Source: Candidatus Thorarchaeota archaeon
GTDB lineage: Archaea > Asgardarchaeota > Thorarchaeia > Thorarchaeales > Thorarchaeaceae
Assembly (NCBI GenBank): GCA_048884785.1
Contig: JBHLQM010000011.1
Location: 1-30,372 of the forward strand
DNA: 30,372 nt
Reading direction: 5' to 3'
The notes beneath the pieces are model-generated. The model was not told the origin of the DNA and made no database searches. It saw only the letters and a list, made by a program, of their open reading frames with translations. Of the stretch, positions 9,918 through 24,702 are shown one piece after another (position 1 is the stretch's first letter; the number at the start of each line of letters is the position of its first letter). Made by a program: the position numbers and the translations under genes.

Positions 9918-11417
9918 CTACGGCACAAGTACTGCCGCTGCAGAATTTGCCAAGTCAAGAATTACTCCAGGATAAAGGAATAACACTATCATGCTGATCA
10001 CACAGATTAGTGCGGCAATCATCGGAATCCTTGGTAATGTTATTCTTTCTGTCGATGTAGACTCTGAGAAATACATCACTCTGAGCACTCGCAGGTAGTA
10101 ACCGAGTGAGAATACCACATTCAGGAATCCAATAAGACCCAGCCACCATAGACCGACTTCAGCTGTACTCATGAAGACCATGAATTTGGGAGTAAATCCA
10201 GCGGTTGGAGGGAACCCAGCAAGTGAGAGCATTAGGATACCCAACATAGCGGCGATGATAGGAGACCTCTGACTCAGACCGGATAATTCAGTATATGTGA
10301 TTCGCTTACCCAATGCTATAGACATGGCAAAGATAATGATGAATGCTCCTGCCTTCATTAAGGCATGAATAAATGCGAGGAAGAATGCGGACGATATACC
10401 ATAAGTTGTACTCACCGCAAAGCCAATGAAGACATACCCCATCATAGCAATGCTGCTAAAGGCCAACATTCTGAGAATATCCTTCTGAGCCAAAGCTAGG
10501 AAATTGCCAATTACCATCGTAAGAATAGAAACGACAATGATTAGTCCCAGCCATTCGAAGCGAGCTATGATGAATCCAACCATTAGAATTCGCACCAGCG
10601 CACTGATGCCAGTCTTCTTTGTGGCTCCAGCAAGGTATGCAGTAACACTTCCATCAGCAGTAGCATATGCATCAGGAACCCACATCCAGCCCGGAAATAT
10701 TCCAACCTTGAATCCAAAAGCAATTACAAACAATACCATTGCCAAAAGCAATGTGTATGCTTCTGTAGCAAGAGAAATGGGATCTGCCCAAACTTCTTCT
10801 ATACCTGATGCAACGGCTGAGAGTGCCGTCACACCGGTTATACCATAGACAAGTGCGATACCAAAAATCATGAACATGGTTGATATGAGACCCATGACAA
10901 AATACTTTGTTGCTCCATCAAGAGCTCCTCTATCAGGACTTAATGCAACCAAGATGTAGGTTGGCGTACTCATCAATTCCCAAGCCAAGAAAAGGGCCAC
11001 AAGATCAGTTGCCATTACAACCCACAAGGCTCCTGCAAACGAAATCATGAGCAGAAAATTGTAAGGTCCTTTATCCCCGCCATACTGGGTTGCGGATAGG
11101 AGAACCAAGAATGCAACCACTAATATCAAGTAAATGAAGAAGTCTGCGAATGCATCACGTATGAACAGTCCCCCAAACGAAGAACCATACAAATTGGGAT
11201 TGAGAATCATAACTTCGATGAAGGTGATTATTATCCCAATGATGCTAACTGGTAGTGGGTTGAATCGCATACCAACGACCAGTGCTATGATTGCAAACGC
11301 AATTAGTGTGAGAACTGGCAGCGACCCATACCAAGACTCGGGAAAGAGTAGCAAGAGGTCTCTCAAAGGAGTCATTAACGCCATAAATGCGTTGTATATT
11401 GCATCGAGCTGAAGCAC
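9918..11417 (-). CDS. nuoN: Complex I-like antiporter subunit N
   Basis: AWELMS, ATKYFVMG, GFKVGIFP..MWVPDAY, LRMLAFSSI, LSLAGFPPTAGFTPKF, YYLRV. GTG start overlaps the nuoM TAG. Confidence 0.9.
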   Translation of the reverse strand: MLQLDAIYNAFMALMTPLRDLLLLFPESWYGSLPVLTLIAFAIIALVVGMRFNPLPVSIIGIIITFIEVMILNPNLYGSSFGGLFIRDAFADFFIYLILVVAFLVLLSATQYGGDKGPYNFLLMISFAGALWVVMATDLVALFLAWELMSTPTYILVALSPDRGALDGATKYFVMGLISTMFMIFGIALVYGITGVTALSAVASGIEEVWADPISLATEAYTLLLAMVLFVIAFGFKVGIFPGWMWVPDAYATADGSVTAYLAGATKKTGISALVRILMVGFIIARFEWLGLIIVVSILTMVIGNFLALAQKDILRMLAFSSIAMMGYVFIGFAVSTTYGISSAFFLAFIHALMKAGAFIIIFAMSIALGKRITYTELSGLSQRSPIIAAMLGILMLSLAGFPPTAGFTPKFMVFMSTAEVGLWWLGLIGFLNVVFSLGYYLRVLRVMYFSESTSTERITLPRIPMIAALICVISMIVLFLYPGVILDLANSAAAVLVP

Positions 11418-12979
11418 TAGACCACACCTCCAATAATGAAAACAACAACTTTCATGACCAAATCCAAAATAAGGTCAGGCCAGATGCCTAGGAGTAGAAC
11501 TGGTATCATCATGAGGATTGGTGCGACTAGATCACTCCATGGTGCCTCTTGAACCTCTTTCTCAGGATCAGGGTCACTGAATACTATTCTGTTTAGAGTC
11601 CACAGCAAATAGCCAACTGTAAGGAATATTCCAAGCCCAATCAAACCCGTCCAGATATATCCCTCCACAGATACAGCACCGAATAATGTCAGTGCCTCTG
11701 CAATGAATCCGCTGAATCCAGGAAGTCCAAAGGCAGCGAGAGATGCAAGGATGAAGACTGCTGACATCTTTGGTGCCTTTGACATTAGCCCTTGTATCTG
11801 CGGAATCTCACGCGTGCCAGCAGCATATTTCAGCTGTCCGGCCATAAGGAACATCACAGATATGATGGTTCCATGGCTGAACATCATGAATATGGCACCA
11901 TTTAGTGCAAGACCAGCTGCAGCCTTAACAGCTGCACTCGTACTACCGATACCAACTGCACCAATGGCAACACCCAGCAGGACCCACGACATATGGTTGA
12001 TTGAAGTATATGCTACCATGCTCTTCATATCAGTCTGGGCCATCGCAGTGAAGGCCGCATAGACACATGTGAATACTGCTAATGCTGCGAAGGGGATTGC
12101 AAGTCGGACAAAACCATCAGGGACCATCCACAGACCTAATCTGATGAATGCATAGCCACCCATCTTCAGAAGTATTCCCGCCAAAATGACTGAACCAGGA
12201 GTTGGAGCTTTGACATGAGCCCACGGCAACCAATTGTGTAGTGGGAATACTGGTAGCTTTACACCAGCGCCCATAAAGACTGCGAGAGCGAAACCAATCT
12301 GAACATCAACAGGGAGTCCCATTGCTCTGAGTTCAACCATATTGAAAGTTGGAGTCGGAGCAAGGAAGAATAGAACAAAGAACGAGATTGCCATGACGGC
12401 GGAACCTAGATGCGTGTAGATGACAAACTTCATTGCTGCATGCTCACAGCCCTGCTCCCCATACCTTCCGACGATGAAGAACATCGGGATGAGTACAAGT
12501 TCCCAGAATACAAAGAATCCGAATAGGTCAATTGACATGAAGACTCCCAGAAGGCCTGTCTGCATAAACAGGAACAGAGAGTAATACATGCTTTGGGCTT
12601 TCTTGATATGATTGGAGCTTATCGCTGCTATGAAGACAACTAGATTGGATAGAACAATCATCACTACAGAGAGACCATCAATTCCTACAAGGAGCTGAAG
12701 AACCGGTGAATCAGCTGCAGTACCAAGCACTGCGATAATGAAACTCCATCCATATGTTCCACCAGTTGGATCAGTTAGTTGATAATTGGGATCAATCGCC
12801 CCTGCAAGCAATAGTGATAGGACTAGCTCAATGAATCCTATAACCAATGTCAGCCAGCGGGCTCCTCTCCCTCCGGCGACAAGAGCAAGAAATGCTCCAA
12901 TGACTGGAAGTAGAAGCATGAATGGCAGGATTCCAAAGGGAATCATCGAGATAAGGGATTGAGCAAATTCAAGCTGCAT
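11417..12979 (-). CDS. nuoM: Complex I-like antiporter subunit M
   Basis: GIDGLS, FWELVLIPMF, VKLPVFPLHNWLPWAHVKAPTPGSVILAGILLKMGGY, GLPGFSGFIAE. Confidence 0.92.
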   Translation of the reverse strand: MQLEFAQSLISMIPFGILPFMLLLPVIGAFLALVAGGRGARWLTLVIGFIELVLSLLLAGAIDPNYQLTDPTGGTYGWSFIIAVLGTAADSPVLQLLVGIDGLSVVMIVLSNLVVFIAAISSNHIKKAQSMYYSLFLFMQTGLLGVFMSIDLFGFFVFWELVLIPMFFIVGRYGEQGCEHAAMKFVIYTHLGSAVMAISFFVLFFLAPTPTFNMVELRAMGLPVDVQIGFALAVFMGAGVKLPVFPLHNWLPWAHVKAPTPGSVILAGILLKMGGYAFIRLGLWMVPDGFVRLAIPFAALAVFTCVYAAFTAMAQTDMKSMVAYTSINHMSWVLLGVAIGAVGIGSTSAAVKAAAGLALNGAIFMMFSHGTIISVMFLMAGQLKYAAGTREIPQIQGLMSKAPKMSAVFILASLAAFGLPGFSGFIAEALTLFGAVSVEGYIWTGLIGLGIFLTVGYLLWTLNRIVFSDPDPEKEVQEAPWSDLVAPILMMIPVLLLGIWPDLILDLVMKVVVFIIGGVV

Positions 12980-12980
12980 C

Positions 12981-15332
12981 TTAGATTACCCCCATAGTGA
13001 TGAGAATGACAAGAATCATAATTCCGAATCCAAACATAATCACAGAAACATAGTCATTCACACGGCCTGTTTGCATTGCCTGTCCGCTCTCAGATGCACC
13101 AACACTACGTGTTGATACTCCCTCTGCGAAGCCATCTACCACATTGTCATCAAACCAACGGATTCTCCTGGAGAGTTCTTTGGCAGTATCTGCAGACTTG
13201 AAATCTATTCCATCAATGATATTGTTGTCAACTCTGACACGATACCACTCTGCAAACTTTAGGAACTTGTTCAGTACCCAATAGTAGAACTCATTGATGT
13301 ACCAGCGATGCTTAAGGAAGTTGTAGATTCTCCTCTTGAAGCCACTTTCAGGAATGATTGCATTTGGCTTGTCCCCACGCTTGATGTAGATGAGATAGCC
13401 TGGAATTCCACCAACTGCAAGTGCGAGCAGTGTAATAGTGAAGGGTACAATTCCCAGCTCACTGAATTTGACTGCAATCATCTCAGTGAGGATTTCAGTC
13501 CATGTGTGCTCTGAACCAATGGCAAGCATCTCCACATAGGGGAATACTAGAAACGCAATCAGTGTGAATGCTGCCAGAAGGTATAGAGGAATCATCATGG
13601 CAGGACCAGGATCATGCGGGTCACTGTGGTGTTCTTCTGAAGTGCGCTCTTCGTGGTGCTCGTCAGAGTCCACAAGATGATTATCCACGGTAGTGTCATG
13701 TTCTTCATGATGTCCAGAATCATGACTATCATGATTACCGTGACCGGCCTTGCCGGGGCCGTAGAAGGTTAATCCCATTAATCTAAAGCTGTAGAATATT
13801 GTGCATGCGGCTGCAATTATAGCAAACAAAAATACAAGCCAGCCAACAGACGCTATTAGAATTCCACCATGAGATACTATCTCTCCCTCGACAATCATCA
13901 ACTCATATGCATACTCGATGATTGAGTCTTTTGACCAGAAGCCTGAGAACGGAGGAATTCCGGCTAGAGCCAAGACACCAATCCACATCACTATGAAGGT
14001 CTTTCGCATGTGTTTCCTGAGGCCACCCATCTTTGAGATATACTTCGTATGAACTGCATGAATTACTCCTCCTGAGGCAAGGAATAGTAGTGCCTTGAAT
14101 GCACCATGGGATATCACATGCAGCACACTTGCAAGATAGGCGGATTCATACGCAATATGAGTGGTTAATCCAAGGTCGTGAGCATAAAGACCGTAGAATG
14201 CGAGGAGTCCAGCGGCCCCCAGTCCAAGCATCATGTAGCCGAGCTGGCTGAGTGTCGAAAACGCCAGTATTTGTTTGAGCTCGTTTGAGGTTATACCCAT
14301 TGTTGCTGTCATGAGGGCGGTGACCGCACCTATGACCGCAACAACAATGAAGAAGAATGTAATAGCGTCAGCACCTGAAACCTGTAACAAGTTGAACGCG
14401 TGTTCCCCACCATTGTGATCTCCAGCAGCCGCTGCCTGCGCATCAACCATTGTGAGCAGGAATCGTGCTGTGATGTAGATGCCAGCCTTTACCATAGTAG
14501 CTGCGTGAATTAGTGCGGAAACTGAGGTCGGGCCTGCCATTGCCTCTGGCAGCCACACCTGTAGCGGTGCCTGTCCAGATTTACCAATGGCACCCATGAA
14601 GATCAGAAGGAATGTTGGAATCAGCATTCCAAGTCCAGCCATGGTAGTCCACCACTGCTGGTAGTTCTCTGCCATAAGGCTGAAGGAGAATGTGCCAGTG
14701 AAGGCAAATAATAGAAGGATACCTCCAAGCATGAAAGCATCGCCAATTCGTGTGACTATGAATGCCTTAGTTCCACAATGAGAGTTGTATTGACCTTCGG
14801 TCGTGAATTGAAGTAGAGGATTCTCGTATTCAACCTCGCCAGGTGCAGTCTCAGGTGGATTCCGCTTGTCGTTCCAGAAGCCAATAAGACCGTAGGAGCA
14901 GAAGCCCATAATCTCCCAGCCAATGAACGCAATCAGCAAGTTGTTGCTTAGGACCAGTGTAAGCATTCCACCACCGAAGGCCAGCATCAGGAAGAAGAAC
15001 CTGTCGCGGTCGCCCTCATGTGCCATATACTCTGTGCTGTACACGTAGATTAAGAAACACAACGTGCTTGCGAGTACAGCCATGATAACTGAGAGTGGGT
15101 CAAGGAGGACCTCGAAGCTAATACCCAGGTAGTCAATCCATACCCACGAAGTCGTACCAACTGGATTATCCACTTCCAGAAGAAGGGACCAACAAAGAAC
15201 CATTGCGATACCCATCATGATTGCAGGAGTCCAGTCTCGGAGTTTCTCACTGAACCTACCAACAATAGGCACTAGCAGAGCTCCAGCCAATGGGATTACA
15301 AGGATTAGGTAGTAGGGTAGTCCGAACAGCAT
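12981..15332 (-). CDS. nuoL: Complex I-like antiporter subunit L, long form (783 aa) with His-rich loop and extended lateral helix
   Basis: GWEIMGFCSYGLIGFW, KAFIVTRIGD, GKSGQAPLQVWLPEAMAGPTSVSALIHAATMV, HGAFKALLFL, GFWSKD, QTGRVNDY. Confidence 0.93.
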   Translation of the reverse strand: MLFGLPYYLILVIPLAGALLVPIVGRFSEKLRDWTPAIMMGIAMVLCWSLLLEVDNPVGTTSWVWIDYLGISFEVLLDPLSVIMAVLASTLCFLIYVYSTEYMAHEGDRDRFFFLMLAFGGGMLTLVLSNNLLIAFIGWEIMGFCSYGLIGFWNDKRNPPETAPGEVEYENPLLQFTTEGQYNSHCGTKAFIVTRIGDAFMLGGILLLFAFTGTFSFSLMAENYQQWWTTMAGLGMLIPTFLLIFMGAIGKSGQAPLQVWLPEAMAGPTSVSALIHAATMVKAGIYITARFLLTMVDAQAAAAGDHNGGEHAFNLLQVSGADAITFFFIVVAVIGAVTALMTATMGITSNELKQILAFSTLSQLGYMMLGLGAAGLLAFYGLYAHDLGLTTHIAYESAYLASVLHVISHGAFKALLFLASGGVIHAVHTKYISKMGGLRKHMRKTFIVMWIGVLALAGIPPFSGFWSKDSIIEYAYELMIVEGEIVSHGGILIASVGWLVFLFAIIAAACTIFYSFRLMGLTFYGPGKAGHGNHDSHDSGHHEEHDTTVDNHLVDSDEHHEERTSEEHHSDPHDPGPAMMIPLYLLAAFTLIAFLVFPYVEMLAIGSEHTWTEILTEMIAVKFSELGIVPFTITLLALAVGGIPGYLIYIKRGDKPNAIIPESGFKRRIYNFLKHRWYINEFYYWVLNKFLKFAEWYRVRVDNNIIDGIDFKSADTAKELSRRIRWFDDNVVDGFAEGVSTRSVGASESGQAMQTGRVNDYVSVIMFGFGIMILVILITMGVI

Positions 15333-15343
15333 TTTTGATCACC

Positions 15344-16891
15344 TCATGGAATGGGAATCAGATCTTTGAAGGGAATCAAGTTCGGTATTGCGTCCACTGC
15401 GGGCACTATGATATCAAGCGCTATTCCTGGGAATATTCCAAAGAACACGATGAGGAACCCGAGAATTATCATTGGGATTGTCATTGATCTCGGCCCTTCT
15501 GTCACTCCATCGAGTTCTTGGGGATGTGGTCCTAGAAACACTTTCCAGAAGAAGCGCAGCATATATCCTGCACTCATTATGGTGCTGGATACTGCAAGTA
15601 CAGAAAGTATCAGGAAGTTCATGAACACGGTTTCTGAACCTGGAGGCGCAGCTGCATGGAATCCACCAAGGAACATCATCCACTCGCTCGCAAACCCAGA
15701 AAGCGGGGGGCTACCAGCAATGCTCATCATACCTATCGCTGCCATGAAGGCAGTAATGGGCATCTTGTTTGAGAGACCACCAAGCTCGTCAATATTCCGT
15801 ATATGTGTCTGATGCATAACCGTCCCGGCAGTCATGAACAACAGACCTTTGGAGAATGCATGATTGATAAGATGGAAGAGACCACCTGATACGCCATAAA
15901 CAGTGAAGACTCCTAGGGCAAACAGGACATAGCCCATCTGAGACACAGACGAGTATGCTAAGAGACGTTTGATATCTTTCTGAACAAGTGCCATGAAACC
16001 TCCATAAAACATGGTTATGACACCAATGGTTGCAATCCAGAAAGATAGGCTGGCTGCTGCAGGTCCAAGTGTGATTGTCCCAAACCGGACAAGTGCATAC
16101 GCTCCGGTTTCAATCATTGCACCTGATAGCAGAACTGAGATGGGGGTTGGAGCTTCAGCATGAACTGGAGGAAGCCACCAATGAATCGGGAATACTGCCA
16201 TCTTGACCAGAAATCCTGCGGCAAGAAGAATGAAGATTAACTTCAGAAGATCAGTGGCACCAACATATGTTGACAAGAGAAGCTGTATTGTAGCAAGGTC
16301 AAATGTGCTTGCCCCGCTCAGGAAGTAGAGAAGTCCGAAGCCTATCAGAATACAGACTGCTCCGCTCTGAGTATATAGCCAGAATTTCAAAGCAGTGCGC
16401 TTTCGTGATTCAGGCAGTCCCCAAAGTAGGATGAGGAAATACGAAGGCACAAGCATGAGTTCCCAGGCGATGAAGAACTCAATCATATTTGTGGCCAATG
16501 TGACCCATTGCATACCCATTAGAAAGAACAGTTGATTCGCAAAGAAGGCAGGTTTACTGTGTTCGTGTGAGGTGTAGCCAACTGCGTAGACAACAGAGAG
16601 AAAGCCAAGCACGACAACTGCAAATGTGATCGGAAATGCAATGCCATCAAGATATAACCCGAATGCGCCAAGTAGAGAAGACCAAGTCATTCCTTCATAC
16701 GCTGGTCCACCCTCAACCATAATTCGGAAGAAGGGTGGAATCATTAGGATTACTGAAACACCTGAAAAGGCAACAGCAATCTTTCCAGCACGGTCTCCAA
16801 TTCTATTTTTGAACAGGTAAATTAGAAGGCCACCAACGAAGAGGACAATAAGTGAGAGGGCCATAAATGGCGGTTCGAATGTTGCCTGCAT
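15344..16891 (-). CDS. nuoM: Second NuoM/MrpD-like antiporter subunit (extra 'M2')
   Basis: AWELMLVPSYFLI, VKMAVFPIHWWLPPVHAEAPTPISVLLSG, DIKRLLAYSSVSQMGY, GFASEW (TM12 Glu as in NuoM). No lateral helix. Confidence 0.85.
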   Translation of the reverse strand: MQATFEPPFMALSLIVLFVGGLLIYLFKNRIGDRAGKIAVAFSGVSVILMIPPFFRIMVEGGPAYEGMTWSSLLGAFGLYLDGIAFPITFAVVVLGFLSVVYAVGYTSHEHSKPAFFANQLFFLMGMQWVTLATNMIEFFIAWELMLVPSYFLILLWGLPESRKRTALKFWLYTQSGAVCILIGFGLLYFLSGASTFDLATIQLLLSTYVGATDLLKLIFILLAAGFLVKMAVFPIHWWLPPVHAEAPTPISVLLSGAMIETGAYALVRFGTITLGPAAASLSFWIATIGVITMFYGGFMALVQKDIKRLLAYSSVSQMGYVLFALGVFTVYGVSGGLFHLINHAFSKGLLFMTAGTVMHQTHIRNIDELGGLSNKMPITAFMAAIGMMSIAGSPPLSGFASEWMMFLGGFHAAAPPGSETVFMNFLILSVLAVSSTIMSAGYMLRFFWKVFLGPHPQELDGVTEGPRSMTIPMIILGFLIVFFGIFPGIALDIIVPAVDAIPNLIPFKDLIPIP

Positions 16892-17323
16892 TTACCTGAA
16901 CCTCCTTCCTCGCCATTCCAATGGCTCTCTGTCCAGGTTCTCAATCTTATCAGGACCAAATAGCAGATCTTCGCGCTCTCCTTCAGAGAGGTCAACAATA
17001 GGAGTGTGGAATAGAGCATCGAACCTGCAGGCATCAACGCAGAGTCCGCAGAAGATACAGCGTGTATAATCGAAATACAATGCTGCGTCTTTCTCGTACA
17101 TCTTATCCTCCTTATCAATTCGAATTGCCACAACTGGGCATGCACGGACGCACTGAGCGCACGCAGTGCAGGCATGACGCACATGTATGTGTCTTCCGCG
17201 AGTTCTCTCAGGATAGTATCTATCCTCAAATGGAAAGAGATTCGTGACAGGTCGCTTGAAGATCTGTCTAAAGACATGTCTAAGTACCTTGAAGATATCG
17301 CCTAGATTTCCAAAGAATCCCAT
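16892..17323 (-). CDS. nuoI: Complex I subunit I, 2x[4Fe-4S]
   Basis: PVT..P.E....ERTRGRH, CTACAQCVRACP, CIFCGLCVDACR. Confidence 0.92.
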   Translation of the reverse strand: MGFFGNLGDIFKVLRHVFRQIFKRPVTNLFPFEDRYYPERTRGRHIHVRHACTACAQCVRACPVVAIRIDKEDKMYEKDAALYFDYTRCIFCGLCVDACRFDALFHTPIVDLSEGEREDLLFGPDKIENLDREPLEWRGRRFR

Positions 17324-17327
17324 CTCA

Positions 17328-18452
17328 TTAACCTCCTATAACAAAGCCTGCTAATCCTGGCACGTAGACTATTGCAAACATAGCCAGAAGGACATTCAAC
17401 ATTGATAATGGAAGGAGATACTTCCAACAGAAGTATACAATCTGATCTTGCCTGAGCCTGTGGAATGATGAACTTACAAACACAAACAAGAATAGAACAA
17501 TCAGGAACTTGATGAGGAAATTGACAACACCGGGCAAAAATGGAATTCCATTGAATCCGCCCAAGAAGAATGTGACAATAAGAGCTGAGTAAAGCATCTG
17601 CTCCGCAAACTCAGCGAAATATGTCAAAGTGAAATAGATACCGGAAAATTCTGTTCTCCACCCAAAGATGATCTCTGAGTCAGCAACCGGTGCATCAAAT
17701 GGAAATGTGCCAACAGATGCAATTGCTGCAGCAAGGAATGTTACGCAGTTGATTGGAAGCAGAACGATATACCAAATTGCACTCTGGGCTTGTGTAATAG
17801 CCATTACACTCAATGATCCAGCCAGCATTGCAGGTCCAACTGAAGAGATAATCATGGGAATCTCAGCGGCGAACTGATTGTTGGCTGCTCTGAAGCCTCC
17901 GATGAGAGAATACTTCGAACCGCTAATCCAACCCGAAAGCAGAGCAATCACAGGGACCGCAGTAAGAAACGCGAAAATCAATACAAGACTCACAGAGAGA
18001 TCAGCAATGACCCACGTTGTATCCCAGGGAATAAATGCAAAGGGTAACAATACAATTACCAGCAATAGCGATGGCAAAAACCTGTACATCCATCGGCTTG
18101 CGTTTCGAGGGATAATTGTTTCCTTCGCCACTAGTTTGATTGCGTCAGCGAAGAGCTGCAAACCACCATACTTGCCCAAATGGAATGGACCGCGTCGCAT
18201 CTGAATACGGCCCCATAACTTTCTTGTCGCCCACACAAAGAAGATGAGCGTCATAACAATGAATATGAGACCTGGGAAGAGCACTGTCTTAAATAGAAAC
18301 CAGAAGTTTTGAACTACAAGAAGCCAAATGAAATCAACGACACTTTCTATCCAGAGTACCACCTGATGAAGGAAGTTCCAAATTATTGCAATTATGTTCC
18401 ATATCCACTGAGGAATTCCTGCAAGCCATTCAAAGAAATCAAACTGCAACAT
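17328..18452 (-). CDS. nuoH: Complex I subunit H, with Trp-rich N-terminal extension
   Basis: RKLWGRIQMRRGP, GLQLFADAIKLVAKE, SKYSLIGGFRA, PFDAPVADSEI..G..TEFSG, RLRQDQ. Start reassigned to ATG 18452 (GGAGGTGG upstream; avoids the overlap with nuoD). Confidence 0.92.
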   Translation of the reverse strand: MLQFDFFEWLAGIPQWIWNIIAIIWNFLHQVVLWIESVVDFIWLLVVQNFWFLFKTVLFPGLIFIVMTLIFFVWATRKLWGRIQMRRGPFHLGKYGGLQLFADAIKLVAKETIIPRNASRWMYRFLPSLLLVIVLLPFAFIPWDTTWVIADLSVSLVLIFAFLTAVPVIALLSGWISGSKYSLIGGFRAANNQFAAEIPMIISSVGPAMLAGSLSVMAITQAQSAIWYIVLLPINCVTFLAAAIASVGTFPFDAPVADSEIIFGWRTEFSGIYFTLTYFAEFAEQMLYSALIVTFFLGGFNGIPFLPGVVNFLIKFLIVLFLFVFVSSSFHRLRQDQIVYFCWKYLLPLSMLNVLLAMFAIVYVPGLAGFVIGG

Positions 18453-18466
18453 TATTCCACCTCCCA

Positions 18467-19603
18467 TCATCGATCCCACCATCCCACGTATGGATCTAGA
18501 CTGCCAAATATTGCAATGAAATCTGCAAACCTTGATCCGGGAGTCAAATACTTGAGTGCCTGATAGGAATTCAGGCAAGATCCGCGTATCTTTGCACGGT
18601 AGGGTGTTTGTGCCTTGTCCTCTGTTTTCAGCCAGAGTCCAAGTACACCTCGTGTACCTTCTACACGTCCATAGGCCTCACCGGCTGGAAGTCGGTTCGC
18701 TTTAGCGCGAGCCTTTGGATCTGCAATCTCTCCTTCGGGGACCTGGGGGAGTAGCTGTCGTATAATATTGATTGATGTTCGGACTTCCTTGAACCTTTGA
18801 ACCATTCTGTCATATGCGTCACTCTCCCCGGGATGATTGGGATTCTCAGTGATCGGAACCTCCCAATCAACCAGGTCGTATGCAAGATTGGGGTCTGGCA
18901 TATCTTTCCTGAGATCCATTGGTAATCCACATGCCTTGACATTGGGTCCTGATAGACCCCATTTGAGAGCCTGCTTGGCGGAATACTGTCCGATACCTTC
19001 AGTTCTCCTTCTGAAGAGAGGACTACCCATTAGCATATCCTCAAACTTTGACATGTTTGCCTCCATATGAGCAATCGCCTTTTCCAGGGTTTGCACTGAT
19101 TTCTCAGTAAAATCATACTTCACGCCACCAGGAGTATTGTATGATACTGTATGTCTGGAACCAGTAAGCTCCTCAAATGCATTCAAGAAGAATTCACGGT
19201 CAATCCATGGCCAGATGAGCATGGCAAAGAAACCCAGCTCTGCTGAGAACTGCCCCCACCAGAATTGAATTGAGTGGATCCTACTTGCTTCCATCATTAT
19301 TGTACGCATGACTTTCGCTCTATCAGGAACCTCTAATTCCGCAATCTGCTCTACCGCAGAGATATAGGGATATTCAGAGAGAAACGCTTCAAGCATGCAT
19401 AATCTCTCCATGACCAATGAACCTTGTCTGAAATTGCGAAATTCAAGAACCTTCTCTGCGGATCTATGAAAGTACCCAGCATGCGGATCACATTCAACAA
19501 TGAAGTCACCGACAACTTTCAGTTTTGCAGCCCATCCATGAGCTGACACATGCTGAGGTCCAAACCAAACATCAACTGATTCATCAACAATATCCGGACT
19601 CAT
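18467..19603 (-). CDS. nuoD: Complex I subunit D-like large subunit, no [NiFe] ligands
   Basis: FGPQHVSAHG, GYFHRSAEK, EASRIHS, DAYDR, VEGTRG.LG, PYRAKIRG, GSLDPYVGWWDR. Lacks both CxxC motifs of hydrogenase large subunits. Confidence 0.9.
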   Translation of the reverse strand: MSPDIVDESVDVWFGPQHVSAHGWAAKLKVVGDFIVECDPHAGYFHRSAEKVLEFRNFRQGSLVMERLCMLEAFLSEYPYISAVEQIAELEVPDRAKVMRTIMMEASRIHSIQFWWGQFSAELGFFAMLIWPWIDREFFLNAFEELTGSRHTVSYNTPGGVKYDFTEKSVQTLEKAIAHMEANMSKFEDMLMGSPLFRRRTEGIGQYSAKQALKWGLSGPNVKACGLPMDLRKDMPDPNLAYDLVDWEVPITENPNHPGESDAYDRMVQRFKEVRTSINIIRQLLPQVPEGEIADPKARAKANRLPAGEAYGRVEGTRGVLGLWLKTEDKAQTPYRAKIRGSCLNSYQALKYLTPGSRFADFIAIFGSLDPYVGWWDR

Positions 19604-20127
19604 TCGCTGGCACCTCCTCTCTCTGGGCGTGGTTTTGGAGTCGCCAGACCAGATTCGTCAACCCGACTTCTGTCGATTACAAAGCTCTTTCGAAGTGGGT
19701 ATTGTCCCTCAAGCTCATCTGGAAGAAGCAAGAGCCTTAGGTCAGGATGGCCCTGAAAATGAATACCGTACATTTCGTGCGTTTCTCGTTCATGCCATTC
19801 AAATGCAGGGAAGATGTCAGATGTTGTATCTATTGATGGCTCAGGACCTGAGAGTTCAACGCGGATTTGACAAATGAAATTGTTCAGGTGCGAATAGAGA
19901 ATGTAAATCACCTGATACTTGTCCTCTCCAAGGTCAACTCCAAAAACACACTCTGGGAATATCATCTGAACGGATTCATCAAAGAGGGCAATGAGATCTC
20001 TAATCTGTTCTTTCCTGGGAGAGAATTCCGCACGGTTTTCGTTAATCATGTTAATTGTAATGTCGGGAAAGCGAGCTTGTACTGTTCTCACAAGAGCTGA
20101 GAGAGAGATCAAATCGATAGCATCCAT
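19600..20127 (-). CDS. nuoC: Complex I subunit C
   Basis: FPAFEWHERETHEMYGIHFQGHPDLRLLLLP..YPLRK. Start reassigned to ATG 20127 directly after the nuoK stop (AGGAG upstream). Confidence 0.92.
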   Translation of the reverse strand: MDAIDLISLSALVRTVQARFPDITINMINENRAEFSPRKEQIRDLIALFDESVQMIFPECVFGVDLGEDKYQVIYILYSHLNNFICQIRVELSGPEPSIDTTSDIFPAFEWHERETHEMYGIHFQGHPDLRLLLLPDELEGQYPLRKSFVIDRSRVDESGLATPKPRPERGGASE

Positions 20128-20128
20128 T

Positions 20129-20440
20129 TTACACAGACTCCTCCTTAATTGGACGGCCAAGATCGACCGTTCCATACCTTCGATTATACATCAACATCAG
20201 AACAAGTGCAAGTGCCGTGTGAGCAGCGGCTACTGATATAACAAGAATAATGAGACCCTGAGGTGTGAATGAAAAAACACCTCCGTAAACAGCAAAAGCG
20301 ACCAGTGCCAGATTGACGCCATTACCCATTATTTCAGCACCAATAAGGATTCTAATTAGATTCCGTTTCACGATCATTCCGTAGGCTCCCAGACCCACCA
20401 ACATGAACGCAACAACGAGATACCAACTGAGAGGAACCAT
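20129..20440 (-). CDS. nuoK: Complex I subunit K
   Basis: GAYGMIVKRNLIRILIGAEIMGNGVNL, three TM helices. Confidence 0.9.
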   Translation of the reverse strand: MVPLSWYLVVAFMLVGLGAYGMIVKRNLIRILIGAEIMGNGVNLALVAFAVYGGVFSFTPQGLIILVISVAAAHTALALVLMLMYNRRYGTVDLGRPIKEESV

Positions 20441-21078
20441 TACTCTTCAGCCTCCTCAGTTTCACTGGATATCTCATCAGCCTCAACTTCAGGCTGAGGT
20501 TCAGCTTCTATACCGAACTCTCCGGTAATGCCAACCAATGCTTCAGCCTTGTCCATCTTCATCATAGCGATGGCACCTACTAGTGTAGTAAGAATAAGCA
20601 AAGCTACAATTTGAACATAGATTCCATGATCACTCCATAGCCATTCGGCTAGCCCTTGAAGGCTTTGTGAAAGCTCCGGTACTCCCTCTACAATATATTC
20701 GGGCCAGGGGAAGGCCAGTGCAAGCCCGGCTGAAATTGCCATAACCACAGCTGCAATTAATCTACCAACTTGACGAGCTCGCGCAGATTCAAACACCTCC
20801 AATGACCTGTCTTGCGCTCTTGGGAGCAGGAGAACACCGAAGATTATCAAGGCGCTAATGCCTCCCGTGTAAACAGCTATCTGCATACCGGCAATGAAAG
20901 GTGCATCAAGCAATAGAAAGAAGCCAGCAACAAAACTAGCCATAAATCCGAAGAAGAATACAGCATAGACAATATCCTTGTGTTCAAGGGCAAGATATGC
21001 AAGGATGAGCACAACACCTGCAATAAGTAGGAATTCAACCTGCTCAAATAATTCCAGTACGGGTTCTATCTCCTGCAT
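20440..21078 (-). CDS. nuoK-adjacent nuoJ: Complex I subunit J
   Basis: LDAPFIAGMQIAVYTGGISALIIF, five TM helices, acidic tail. Start reassigned to ATG 21078 (GAGG upstream, 16 nt after the nuoA stop). Confidence 0.88.
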   Translation of the reverse strand: MQEIEPVLELFEQVEFLLIAGVVLILAYLALEHKDIVYAVFFFGFMASFVAGFFLLLDAPFIAGMQIAVYTGGISALIIFGVLLLPRAQDRSLEVFESARARQVGRLIAAVVMAISAGLALAFPWPEYIVEGVPELSQSLQGLAEWLWSDHGIYVQIVALLILTTLVGAIAMMKMDKAEALVGITGEFGIEAEPQPEVEADEISSETEEAEE

Positions 21079-21094
21079 CTTAGTAACCTCTATT

Positions 21095-21523
21095 CTAATG
21101 ATGGATCTCTTTTCTAGCTGCTTTCGCTTGGAGATACGCCTCCACTGTTTCCTTTCCATCTAGGGATGCTTGGGGCAAACGTTTCATGACAAACGAGATC
21201 CCGCCCATGATGACAAGCACAAAGAGAAGTGTCTGCCACAGAATGAGAGCCTCCAATCTCAATGTTGATGCAGATAGTAACCAGAGAAAAGCACCCATTA
21301 CATCAACAACGACAAAGAGAATTGTATACACAATGTAGTTGTACGGATAGGATATCCTTGCCGGACCAATGGGCTCTTCACCACATTCGTAGGTAGATGT
21401 CTTCTCCGAATTCTGAAGGACGTGGGGGCGCAAGACCCACGACGCAAGGAGCATCACAACTACCAGAACCATAGCAAGTAATGCCCAAACCAAAACGGGT
21501 ACGAAATCTACGAATAATCTCAT
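21095..21523 (-). CDS. nuoA: Complex I subunit A
   Basis: EKTSTYECGEEPIG, YTILFVVVDV, three TM helices. Confidence 0.92.
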   Translation of the reverse strand: MRLFVDFVPVLVWALLAMVLVVVMLLASWVLRPHVLQNSEKTSTYECGEEPIGPARISYPYNYIVYTILFVVVDVMGAFLWLLSASTLRLEALILWQTLLFVLVIMGGISFVMKRLPQASLDGKETVEAYLQAKAARKEIHH

Positions 21524-22219: not shown

Positions 22220-22765
22220 TCAATCGGTAGTCTCAGAAGAGGCTGCCGATGATTCCTTAGTTTCTGAGGCCTGTTCTTCAGTTGCCTTTTCTGCAGGAGA
22301 TTCGCTCTCTGGTTTGGTAGTTTCGTCTTCAGGTACTTCCAAAGGAGGACCATACTTCAATTTTGAAACATCCATTATCCCAGGGGTCATTGCCTCTTCA
22401 GTATACTCCTTTGAACGAATCATGGCAAATCCTCCAGCTACAAGAATAACAGAGCCAATTGACCAGCTCGAGAGAAATGCTGTGTCACTGAGAGGCGAGG
22501 AGTTAATCACGAAATACAGCATGTAAAACATTGAGAAGACAGCGGCAATCGCAAGCATGGTAAGTTTTGACCTACCTCGTTCCACAGCAAAATACCTGTA
22601 GAAAAATGGGAGGGACAGAATAGGCCAAATCATCAACCAGAAAGACTGATCCCAGGTTGTCAAAGCTTGCAGCAATTGGTATAGGAAGCTGAAGTAATAT
22701 GCGCTGAGGAGGAGGATGCCCAACCAGACAAGACAATATGGTTCACTATCTTCCCGCAGCTTCAT
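22220..22765 (-). CDS. Membrane protein (about 4 TM) with acidic low-complexity tail, translationally coupled to the FAD-NuoB fusion
   Basis: ATGA overlap at 22762-22765; hydrophobic helices followed by an E/S/T-rich tail. Confidence 0.75.
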   Translation of the reverse strand: MKLREDSEPYCLVWLGILLLSAYYFSFLYQLLQALTTWDQSFWLMIWPILSLPFFYRYFAVERGRSKLTMLAIAAVFSMFYMLYFVINSSPLSDTAFLSSWSIGSVILVAGGFAMIRSKEYTEEAMTPGIMDVSKLKYGPPLEVPEDETTKPESESPAEKATEEQASETKESSAASSETTD

Positions 22766-24702
22766 TGGATCATCCCCATCGCATCTTGATTCTCATATTT
22801 CCTCTGCCAATGAGTTGTTCCGGCACGAATCTTGTTCTGAAGAATTAGATGTGCTCTTACAAAGTCAGCTGGCTTTGGCGGACACCCTGGCAAGTAGACG
22901 TCTACAGGGACAACCTTCTCAGGCGGTGTCATTAGAGAGTAGCCATCCCAGAACAAACCACCACTTGCAGCGCACTGTCCAAATGAGATGACATACTTGG
23001 GCTCTGGCATCTGCTCGTAGATCCGTCGCAATCTTGGTGCCATCTTCTTGGTGAGGGACCCGGATATCCAGAGAACATCAGCCTGACGAGGACCAAAGAG
23101 AGGTAGCATTCCAAACCGTTCAATATCCCATCGTGATGCCACAGCGGCCGCACCATCAGCCATGCAGCAACCTAAACCATACTGAACAGGCCATGGACTG
23201 TGAGCCCGTCCCCAGCGAAGCATCCATTTGAGTGGAGGCAGATTTTGCAGCCACTTCAGCAGTATTGGAGCTATCCGGCCAAAACCGTTCCTAAAGAGGT
23301 CGTAGAATATCCACATGAAGTATTTACCAAACTTGAGAATCATGGGCAGCCAGAATGCAAAGATCTTGCCGGGATTGGATATCTCATTCTTGTCATACTT
23401 GAGTTTGGCACCACGAATCTTTGCGAGCCGTCGTTTGCCAAAGTACGTAGGTGCGTAATTTGCAAACCAAATCCCTGTGCTGTGTGGGTGGCCACCATGA
23501 CGCTGAGCAATCTTGAATATAACGAAGCTCTGTGACCAAGAGAGCATGAAGAAGTGACGGCGTTCGTCCTCCAAGAAGTAGCCCATCATGGTCACTCCTG
23601 TCTTTGATGTTACATAGCCATCTATCCCTGCTTCAGCAGAAGCTTGCTCAAACTGGAAATCATCCAAAATGGCTTCAAGGGTCTCAAGAGGTGCAAAGGC
23701 CTGCCCAACAACAAGAGTCGGTCCTGCCTTCTTTACTCGCATTGGATAGAACCTGTCATGCCACTCATGTGCAGCAATATGCTCGTCGTAGAGCTGCCCC
23801 TTGTATTCCTCTGTGACACGTCGTACTACATCAAAACCTTCCTCAATCTCTTCCTCAGTTCCCTCATATGCCACAAGTACTGTCCCATGATGGACAGGGA
23901 ATGGAAAGGGCTCTTCTGGATTCCAGATCTTCTTCTTGAGGTCAGTGTATTTACTCTCTTCAAACTTAATCGTGAATGGAAGTGGACCATCATGCATCAT
24001 CTTTTCCATTGCCATTACCATGAGATAATTCTCAGGAAAACTTGCGACAATAGGTTTGATTGGCATTAGAGGTTTTATCTTCAATTTGATCTTTGTAATG
24101 ATTCCAAGAATACCTTCAGTATCACAGAAGAGGTCAGTATCGGTACTCTTGACCAGCTTCCCTGTTGGAAGGACAACTTCAAACTCTAGCACATTCTTGT
24201 TAATATTCCCATATTTCAGGGATCCAATTCCATCGCCACCCTGAGCTACCCATCCTCCAACAGTTGCTGCCAATCCAGATGATGGATAGCAGCGCAAGTC
24301 CATCCCGTTTCTATTCAATTCATGCTGCAGATTCGACCAGGAGATTCCAGGTTCCACCAGAACAAAATGATTCTCCTTATCTATCTCAAGAATCCTATTC
24401 ATTGGCCGAATATCAACGATGATTCCTCCCTTGCGAGGAATCGCACCTCCGTAACCCGAAGTTCCTGCGCCACGAGGAACAAGAGGAATCTTTTCTTCAT
24501 TAGCGAACTTGTAGAGGGCAACAATTTCCTCTGGGGTATGTGGTTGAACTAGCGCATCCGGCTTGTTGTTCATCAACCATCCTACTTGCTTAGGAAGTGC
24601 ACCTACGTCTGTGGATAAGATGAGCCGCTCATGCTTCTCAGTGATGAGTCGGTCGCCAAAGATTTCAGACAGCTTCTCGATCTGCTTTTTCTTTAGTCCC
24701 AT
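22762..24702 (-). CDS. nuoB: Fusion: FAD-binding oxidoreductase (GlcD/D-lactate dehydrogenase/VAO-PCMH fold, aa 1-~448) plus complex I subunit B (aa ~490-646)
   Basis: N-part: PDALVQP, PLVPRGAGTSGYGG, VLVEPG, ATVGGWVAQGGDG..SLKYG, TEGILGIITK, NPGKIF. C-part: WGRAHSPWPVQYGLGCC, PRQADVL, MAPRLRRIYEQMPEPKYVISFGQCAASGG, VPVDVYLPGCPP. Single uninterrupted frame. Confidence 0.93.
   Translation of the reverse strand: MGLKKKQIEKLSEIFGDRLITEKHERLILSTDVGALPKQVGWLMNNKPDALVQPHTPEEIVALYKFANEEKIPLVPRGAGTSGYGGAIPRKGGIIVDIRPMNRILEIDKENHFVLVEPGISWSNLQHELNRNGMDLRCYPSSGLAATVGGWVAQGGDGIGSLKYGNINKNVLEFEVVLPTGKLVKSTDTDLFCDTEGILGIITKIKLKIKPLMPIKPIVASFPENYLMVMAMEKMMHDGPLPFTIKFEESKYTDLKKKIWNPEEPFPFPVHHGTVLVAYEGTEEEIEEGFDVVRRVTEEYKGQLYDEHIAAHEWHDRFYPMRVKKAGPTLVVGQAFAPLETLEAILDDFQFEQASAEAGIDGYVTSKTGVTMMGYFLEDERRHFFMLSWSQSFVIFKIAQRHGGHPHSTGIWFANYAPTYFGKRRLAKIRGAKLKYDKNEISNPGKIFAFWLPMILKFGKYFMWIFYDLFRNGFGRIAPILLKWLQNLPPLKWMLRWGRAHSPWPVQYGLGCCMADGAAAVASRWDIERFGMLPLFGPRQADVLWISGSLTKKMAPRLRRIYEQMPEPKYVISFGQCAASGGLFWDGYSLMTPPEKVVPVDVYLPGCPPKPADFVRAHLILQNKIRAGTTHWQRKYENQDAMGMIQ

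Follow-up and report, generated by a model that had tools for sequence, protein, structure and literature searches.

In enzymes of the complex I type, each electron pair moves a number of ions that is set by the pump modules present, and this number in turn sets the energy that an organism can save or, in reverse, how low a redox potential it can reach. Does the nuo operon of a Thorarchaeota archaeon encode an enzyme with four such modules instead of three, and is its NuoL subunit built to hold them together? We addressed this question in a 30,372-nucleotide window, the whole stretch of DNA analysed here (Candidatus Thorarchaeota archaeon, GenBank assembly GCA_048884785.1, contig JBHLQM010000011.1), in which nuoL stands among three other antiporter-like genes on the minus strand. 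The lateral helix of this NuoL is longer than that of canonical NuoL by one 26-residue unit, and the additional antiporter-like gene, M2, lies directly upstream. Quite probably, the helix is a lengthened, three-module strap that spans four pumps, the additional module goes back to an ancient module duplication, and the enzyme is an Asgard complex I of the 2M type.

The first-pass annotation of this DNA had described two 26-residue units followed by MQTG at 13077-13232 on the minus strand (NuoL residues 701-752). Both units are present as described; the register used below starts one residue later. The gene and the segments of its helix (TM, transmembrane helix; HL, lateral helix) are:

12981..15332, minus strand: nuoL, 783 aa, with an antiporter-like core, TM15, lateral helix HL and TM16 (Pfam, NCBIfam and fold matches).
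13230..13307, minus strand: HL unit 0, residues 676-701, RWYINEFYYWVLNKFLKFAEWYRVRV, beginning RWYINEFY..., the conserved helix start; R676 and W677 are invariant in the family.
13152..13229, minus strand: HL unit 1, residues 702-727, DNNIIDG...RIRWF, the first D..hhDG contact module, to which residues 595-612 of NdhF1 align.
13074..13151, minus strand: HL unit 2, residues 728-753, DDNVVDG...SGQAM, the second D..hhDG module, at canonical spacing to QTG.
12996..13073, minus strand: QTG hinge (residues 754-756) and TM16 (757-779, a helix in the AlphaFold2 (AF2) model); G756 does not vary, and conservation is at least 90% at Q754 and T755.

Pfam placed PF00662 in the N-terminal part of the protein (49.5 bits) and PF00361 over the antiporter core (191.5 bits). 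The score against TIGR01974 (427.6 bits) exceeded the cut-off of 407.5, while that against the equivalog NF005141 (469.8) fell under the cut-off of 556. NuoL, ND5 and NdhF chains were the top PDB sequence matches and the top Foldseek fold matches, and full-length NuoL chains were matched. Alignment placed the charged residues Glu140 (TM5), Lys251 (TM7) and Lys468 (TM12) at the positions of E. coli NuoL E144, K229 and K399. The C-terminal lateral amphipathic helix followed by TM16 is present as well, and its anchors can be aligned to those of E. coli NuoL, NdhF1 and M. smegmatis NuoL.

Between the RWYINEFY anchor and QTG, this helix carries two D..hhDG motifs (D702-G708 and D728-G734) exactly 26 residues apart. 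The RWY anchor lies exactly 3 x 26 residues ahead of QTG, as compared to 2 x 26 in three-antiporter clusters. Expressed as the anchor-to-QTG distance, this NuoL measures 77 residues and canonical NuoL 49-53. Both motifs were found at the 26-residue spacing in about 114 of 119 Thorarchaeota homologues under a strict pattern, with the remainder off by one residue. In a 70-sequence alignment reaching into other Asgard classes, conservation was at least 90% at each of D702, D707, G708, D728, D733 and G734.

In E. coli NuoL, about 49 residues separate the WGFD anchor from ENG, and the motif position is occupied by R562-D563-P564-L565-N566. P564-N566 form a helix kink in contact with NuoM (PMC3274701); our literature search did not find the label D563 for E. 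coli NuoL, PMC3274701 covering these neighbouring residues. A single motif is usual in NuoL of canonical length. As the first-pass annotation had expected, the helix was some 26 residues shorter and bore one motif in E. coli, in T. elongatus NdhF1, in about 50 named bacterial loci and in 26 Asgard three-antiporter clusters. With canonical NuoL at 49-53 residues and usually one motif, Thorarchaeota NuoL therefore has one additional docking module.

To relate helix length to pump number, we retrieved whole-genome loci across Thorarchaeia and the remainder of the phylum, counted the contiguous antiporter-like genes and measured the anchor spacing at each locus:

Thorarchaeia, M2-L-M-N: 17 loci, spacing 77-78, both motifs in 17 of 17.
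Thorarchaeia, three-antiporter clusters: 9 loci, some in the same genomes as the above, spacing 50-52 in 9 of 9.
Asgard-wide, four antiporter genes: 20 loci, spacing 76-78.
Asgard-wide, three antiporter genes: 26 loci, spacing 49-53.
Asgard-wide, two antiporter genes: 5 loci, spacing 24-25.
Asgard-wide, five antiporter genes: 1 locus (G088; one gene with an internal stop), spacing 105.

Three genomes (G001, G006 and G020) contain within-genome pairs of long-helix and short-helix clusters. Across about 200 L-type proteins, the spacings fell into four groups (24-25, 49-53, 76-81 and 102-105) separated by steps of 26. The three Nitrospirae L-M-M-N loci, which are of the published 2M type, had a spacing of 77. 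Counting these three, a two-unit helix occurred in none of 27 clusters with at least four antiporter genes. The first-pass annotation had raised the question whether the duplication occurs strictly together with M2. Within Thorarchaeia this held perfectly (17 versus 9 loci), but as a strict rule it failed outside the immediate clade, where the counter-case named by the annotation does occur.

Our data suggest a model in which the lateral helix of L is built of 26-residue modules, each about 39 Å long (26 x 1.5 Å, by arithmetic and not by measurement on a model) and thus about one antiporter-like subunit wide. Canonical NuoL has two of them from the RWY anchor to the QTG hinge, and the second bears the single D..hhDG motif; this motif corresponds to D563-P564-L565-N566 of E. 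coli, the kink where the helix touches NuoM. Thorarchaeota NuoL has three, the extra D..hhDG module most likely stemming from an ancient in-frame 78-bp tandem duplication. The longer strap could then span four pump subunits (L, M2, M and N), as opposed to three in the canonical enzyme, with one docking motif per M-type subunit, and the Thorarchaeota enzyme would be the Asgard version of '2M' complex I. From sequence, we infer the physical place of M2 in the membrane arm, the 78-bp duplication as the mutational event, and the pump stoichiometry. Under the hypothesis published for 2M enzymes, each cycle would translocate one additional ion, or consume one in the reverse direction; a 2M-type complex with all four pumps assembled under the helix would move five ions per cycle.

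The operon in which M2 lies runs on the minus strand in the order FAD-domain/NuoB fusion, a 181-aa open reading frame, nuoA, J, K, C, D, H, I, M2, L, M, N. Its other genes are:

15344..16891, minus strand: M2, 515 aa, the fourth antiporter-like subunit, directly upstream of nuoL (PF00361; TIGR01972 at 310.7 bits against a cut-off of 263.8).
11417..12979, minus strand: nuoM, 520 aa (TIGR01972 at 401 bits; in the clade of E. coli NuoM).
9918..11417, minus strand: nuoN, 499 aa (best NCBIfam model TIGR01770 at 293 bits, under its cut-off of 332.6; in the clade of E. coli NuoN).
16892..21523, minus strand: nuoA, J, K, C, D, H and I, the upstream part of the same operon (Pfam).

M2 is located between nuoI and nuoL and overlaps or abuts both within a conserved operon; the M2-L-M-N arrangement is shared by 20 Asgard loci. 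By alignment, M2 keeps Glu144 in TM5, Lys230 in TM7 and Glu403 in TM12, and has Glu261 (16109-16111) at the position of the central TM8 Lys of NuoM (K265 in E. coli). The whole genome, which is 91% complete by marker genes, contains only four PF00361 genes, all of them adjacent in the nuo operon. The source names of the nearest homologues also assign the contig to Thorarchaeota. NuoEFG was not found by Pfam among the operon genes; the rest of the genome was not searched for it. A single 646-aa open reading frame (22762-24702) joins an N-terminal FAD_binding_4 / FAD-oxidase_C domain to NuoB (PF01058). NuoD (18467-19603) contains GPQHVSAHG and ends in DPYVGWWDR without NiFe cysteine ligands, and is therefore not a hydrogenase large subunit.

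Phylogenies of the L and M/N subunits bear on the origin of this operon. All members of the Thorarchaeota NuoL clade have three units, and the clade was supported at 94 by FastTree (19 rows) and at 99 in an IQ-TREE subset (7 rows). It takes in sequences source-named Heimdallarchaeota and Asgardarchaeia, and every member with known context is encoded in an M2-L-M-N arrangement. In trees that took in no named 2M clade 1 or clade 2 sequences, it fell within the Asgard-type half of the L tree and did not group with E. coli, Nitrospirae 2M or Acidobacteriota. An approximately unbiased (AU) test rejected a common clade with Nitrospirae 2M (log-likelihood drop of 252, p = 2e-77), although the test loses some of its weight because the group was defined with a first tree already in view. 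The rejection indicates an origin that is convergent relative to Nitrospirae 2M, and in this the first-pass annotation was right. M2 is not a duplicate of the operon's own M, as the M/N subunit tree shows. Here, M and N of the operon grouped with E. coli NuoM and NuoN, and M2 grouped with the first M-like subunit of Asgard three-antiporter clusters, sister to canonical M. M2 is therefore no recent copy of M, and the operon looks mosaic.

The 2M concept, that is, a second M combined with a 26-aa helix insertion, has been known since 2018; the Thorarchaeota enzyme is probably an archaeal, independently evolved example. PMC9040806 and PMC6606698, both citing Chadwick 2018, report that NuoL of 2M complex I is lengthened, with 26 aa inserted in its amphipathic helix, and that a second NuoM goes with this, in line with the first-pass statement that such an insertion accompanies the second NuoM in bacteria. 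Nitrospirae 2M is assigned to clade 3 in PMC6606698. Recent Asgard surveys report complex I-like enzymes with fewer pumps, not more. A literature search, which did not cover Chadwick 2018 itself, found no work linking NuoM or 2M with Asgard or Thorarchaeota archaea; an Asgard member may already be within the Chadwick 2018 set.

Several observations weigh against a strap that spans four pumps, and structure prediction speaks on both sides. AF2, run on NuoL with the 70-sequence alignment, gave a mean predicted local distance difference test (pLDDT) of 79 and a predicted template modelling score (pTM) of 0.80. In favour of such a strap, both motifs fell within a single continuous helix (678-736), which was followed by a low-confidence stretch and the TM16 helix (757-779). 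Confidence in the lateral helix was low (pLDDT 38-78) because partner subunits were missing from the model, and we therefore drew no distances from it. The remaining observations concern long helices without a matching number of pump genes. A spacing of 77-78 and a double motif together with only L-M-N were found in at least 11 bacterial loci of Acidobacteriota and Verrucomicrobiota, including Vicinamibacterales, Terriglobia, Thermoanaerobaculia, Udaeobacter and others. No spare M turned up when PF00361 genes were counted genome-wide in two cases, a 7.1-Mb assembly of Vicinamibacterales and a complete chromosome of Thermoanaerobaculia. Among Asgard archaea, family f22 has four units (spacing 104, three motif copies) with three antiporter genes, family f14 a long helix with only L-M-N, G074 three units with L-M-N, family f12 four units with four genes, and G150, a genome 98% complete, three units with two antiporter genes. 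Insertions are also reported in complexes without extra pumps, namely the canonical complexes of Manganitrophaceae (PMC9040806).

Because long helices occur with only L-M-N in both bacteria and Asgard archaea, a long helix is necessary for a fourth pump in this sample but is no proof of one. A single M gene product filling two positions may save the strict rule. The bacterial loci L079, L080, L085, L093, L094, L100 and L103, among others, combine the three-unit helix with a clear double VDG-VN motif and only L-M-N, and the f22 loci L050, L051 and L058 are operons of canonical order (C-D-H-I-J-K-L-M-N). Spare antiporter genes were considered as a means of completing the mismatched complexes of G070 and G170 and were ruled out, as the second pair of G170 and the lone gene of G070 lie in their own clusters. 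With the lone spare gene of G176, the complex would stay one subunit short.

How the additional unit arose can be judged from the units themselves. The residues could be an unrelated insertion that gained its D..hhDG motif later, since docking on an M-type subunit needs one, and an inserted segment converging on the same docking motif is possible. This would fit the low identity between units 1 and 2 (5 of 26 residues in the present register, 6 of 26 by eye in the earlier one), the internal similarity being modest and mostly carried by the 8-residue motif. It would also fit the DNA, as we found no direct repeat at 78-bp spacing in the helix-coding sequence, and a self-similarity scan of the whole helix at all offsets did not single out offset 26. 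Furthermore, the first motif is degenerate in G016, G084, P0125 and P0130, which belong to the same clade. Against such an insertion, profile-profile comparison by hhalign matched unit 1 to unit 2 in register over all 26 columns (P = 8.7e-4), whereas controls of unit 0 against units 1 and 2 were not significant (P = 0.37 and 0.9); a shuffle test of unit 1 against unit 2 gave p = 0.005. The length of the insert exactly equals that of a unit. In HMMER alignments, T. elongatus NdhF1 595-612 (RRLARQVLEVDYNVVDGV) maps onto both units, keeping the canonical distance to the upstream anchor on unit 1 and the canonical QNG/QTG distance on unit 2, as a tandem duplication predicts; M. smegmatis NuoL 570-624 aligns to unit 2. 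The 26-residue unit is also plainly duplicated in other lineages, with 15-17 of 26 residues identical (58-65%) in P0142 and in locus L052 of G134. An unrelated insertion thus appears unlikely. The tandem duplication proposed in the first-pass annotation is the likely origin of the unit, supported by the in-register match and the double mapping of NdhF1 and left unproven by the low identity and the lack of a DNA repeat. With no such repeat left, the event would be old.

Two other explanations accept the long helix and dispute its meaning or its ancestry. The helix could be a lineage trait that serves another partner or a lipid or supercomplex contact, with M2 standing apart from the complex or replacing another subunit. 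The many bacteria and some Asgard lineages in which a long helix goes with just three antiporter genes speak for this, as do the Manganitrophaceae complexes. We nevertheless regard it as very improbable: co-occurrence is perfect in Thorarchaeia and across the wider Asgard clade (20 loci), no cluster with at least four antiporter genes has a short helix (0 of 27), and M2 overlaps or abuts nuoI and nuoL. Moreover, M2 is among the only four antiporter-like genes of its genome, which leaves no other partner complex for it. Alternatively, the Asgard four-pump operon could share its origin, by gene transfer, with a published 2M clade such as the archaeal-fosmid or the marine Thaumarchaeota clade. 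The Chadwick 2018 abstract reportedly mentions archaeal fosmids. PMC7300363 places marine heterotrophic Thaumarchaeota in 2M clade 2, a clade that, like clade 1, had no named sequences in our trees. A shared origin is doubtful all the same, if somewhat less so than an unrelated insertion, given that the Asgard L clade groups with no named bacterial sequence and lies in the Asgard-type half of the tree, that a common clade with Nitrospirae 2M is rejected in the AU test, and that M2 is of an Asgard-typical M-like lineage. An independently assembled four-pump enzyme with a duplicated strap module remains our preferred explanation.

Unit number has varied widely beyond this clade. On a FastTree tree built without the helix columns, at least 28 changes of unit number were required, and no fewer than 14 changes of the three-unit state are imposed by branches with strong support. 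Identity between units across other sequences ranges continuously down to 2 of 26. At the upper end of the range, the unit was very recently duplicated in tandem, or triplicated, in L027 (G150:C17:17000-36000), L052 (G134), P0142 and P0152, where as many as 17 of 26 residues are identical; P0152, source-named Thermoproteota, has the unit in three copies. Close relatives G112 and G088, of the same genus group, differ by two units and two pump genes. G112 has two units and three pumps, and its NuoL is very close to that of G088. Locus L039 of the latter (G088:C151:8000-26000) is an Asgard operon of order J-K-M'-M'-L-M-N with five antiporter-like genes, the first of which has an internal TAA stop, and a four-unit helix with a spacing of 105.

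A broader proposal, which we make tentatively and hold with much less confidence than the reading of the Thorarchaeota helix itself, is that the helix acts as a modular ruler. Whole units (1-4) would have been gained and lost many times, growth would proceed by tandem duplication of the docking module, and helix length would cap pump number. The Asgard four-pump enzyme would then have a separate, mosaic origin, with L and M2 from an Asgard hydrogenase-like lineage and M and N canonical, and G088 would have gone on to five pumps. If this proposal is true, bacterial three-unit L-M-N enzymes use one M product twice or have lost a pump. A step-wise, repeat-built helix would also offer a simple sequence read-out of maximum pump number in uncultured organisms, with the caveat that a long helix is no proof of an additional pump. 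Archaeal relatives of eukaryotes are usually pictured as fermenters, and a four-pump enzyme conserved in several Asgard classes bears on their energy metabolism.

Two further features of NuoL lie outside the helix. A His/Asp/Glu-rich, low-complexity loop between TM14 and TM15 (13608-13751, residues 528-575, GHGNHDSHDSGHHEEHD...HHSDPHDPGP) had AF2 pLDDT values below 50 and may bind metal. A conserved Thorarchaeota-specific insertion, NPLLQFxTEGxYNxHCGTKAF (residues 156-186, 14775-14867), occupies a loop ahead of the PF00361 core and is absent from E. coli NuoL. Full-length Thorarchaeota homologues range from about 723 to 783 aa.

Among known systems, canonical NuoL/Nqo12/ND5/NdhF (E. coli 3RKO, T. 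thermophilus 4HE8, T. elongatus 6HUM) has the same fold and key charged residues as Thorarchaeota NuoL, and the same helix anchors (RWY-type start, one D..hhDG module, QTG hinge and TM16). Thorarchaeota NuoL differs by one additional 26-residue D..hhDG module (77 versus 49-53) and by lineage-specific loops, including residues 528-575. Asgard complex I-like and group 4 hydrogenase-like clusters (bioRxiv 10.1101/2024.07.04.601786; PMC11291895) contain the L and first M-like subunits closest to Thorarchaeota L and M2. Pumps number two or three in these clusters, and their helices consist of one or two units, whereas the Thorarchaeota operon adds canonical-type M and N and a NuoD without NiFe cysteine ligands. 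In Manganitrophaceae Complex_I_3 and the rhizobial 'green' complex I (PMC9040806), a changed pump number likewise goes together with 26 residues inserted into the lateral helix of an L-type subunit (MrpD2), but these are bacterial enzymes with five pumps in which two MrpD-like subunits replace NuoL.

The closest parallel is 2M complex I (Chadwick, Hemp, Fischer and Orphan 2018, ISME J 12:2668; for example CI_1 of Nitrospira, clade 3), which shares a fourth M-type gene in the nuo operon. Also common to both are a NuoL lateral helix longer by 26 residues, with a spacing of 77 at the Nitrospirae loci that we fetched, and an operon without NuoEFG. The Thorarchaeota system differs in its gene order (M2-L-M-N versus L-M-M-N), in a NuoL that belongs to an Asgard-type clade separate from Nitrospirae, in its NuoB-flavoprotein fusion, and in an M2 that derives from the Asgard M-like lineage rather than from recent copying of M and carries Glu in place of the TM8 Lys.

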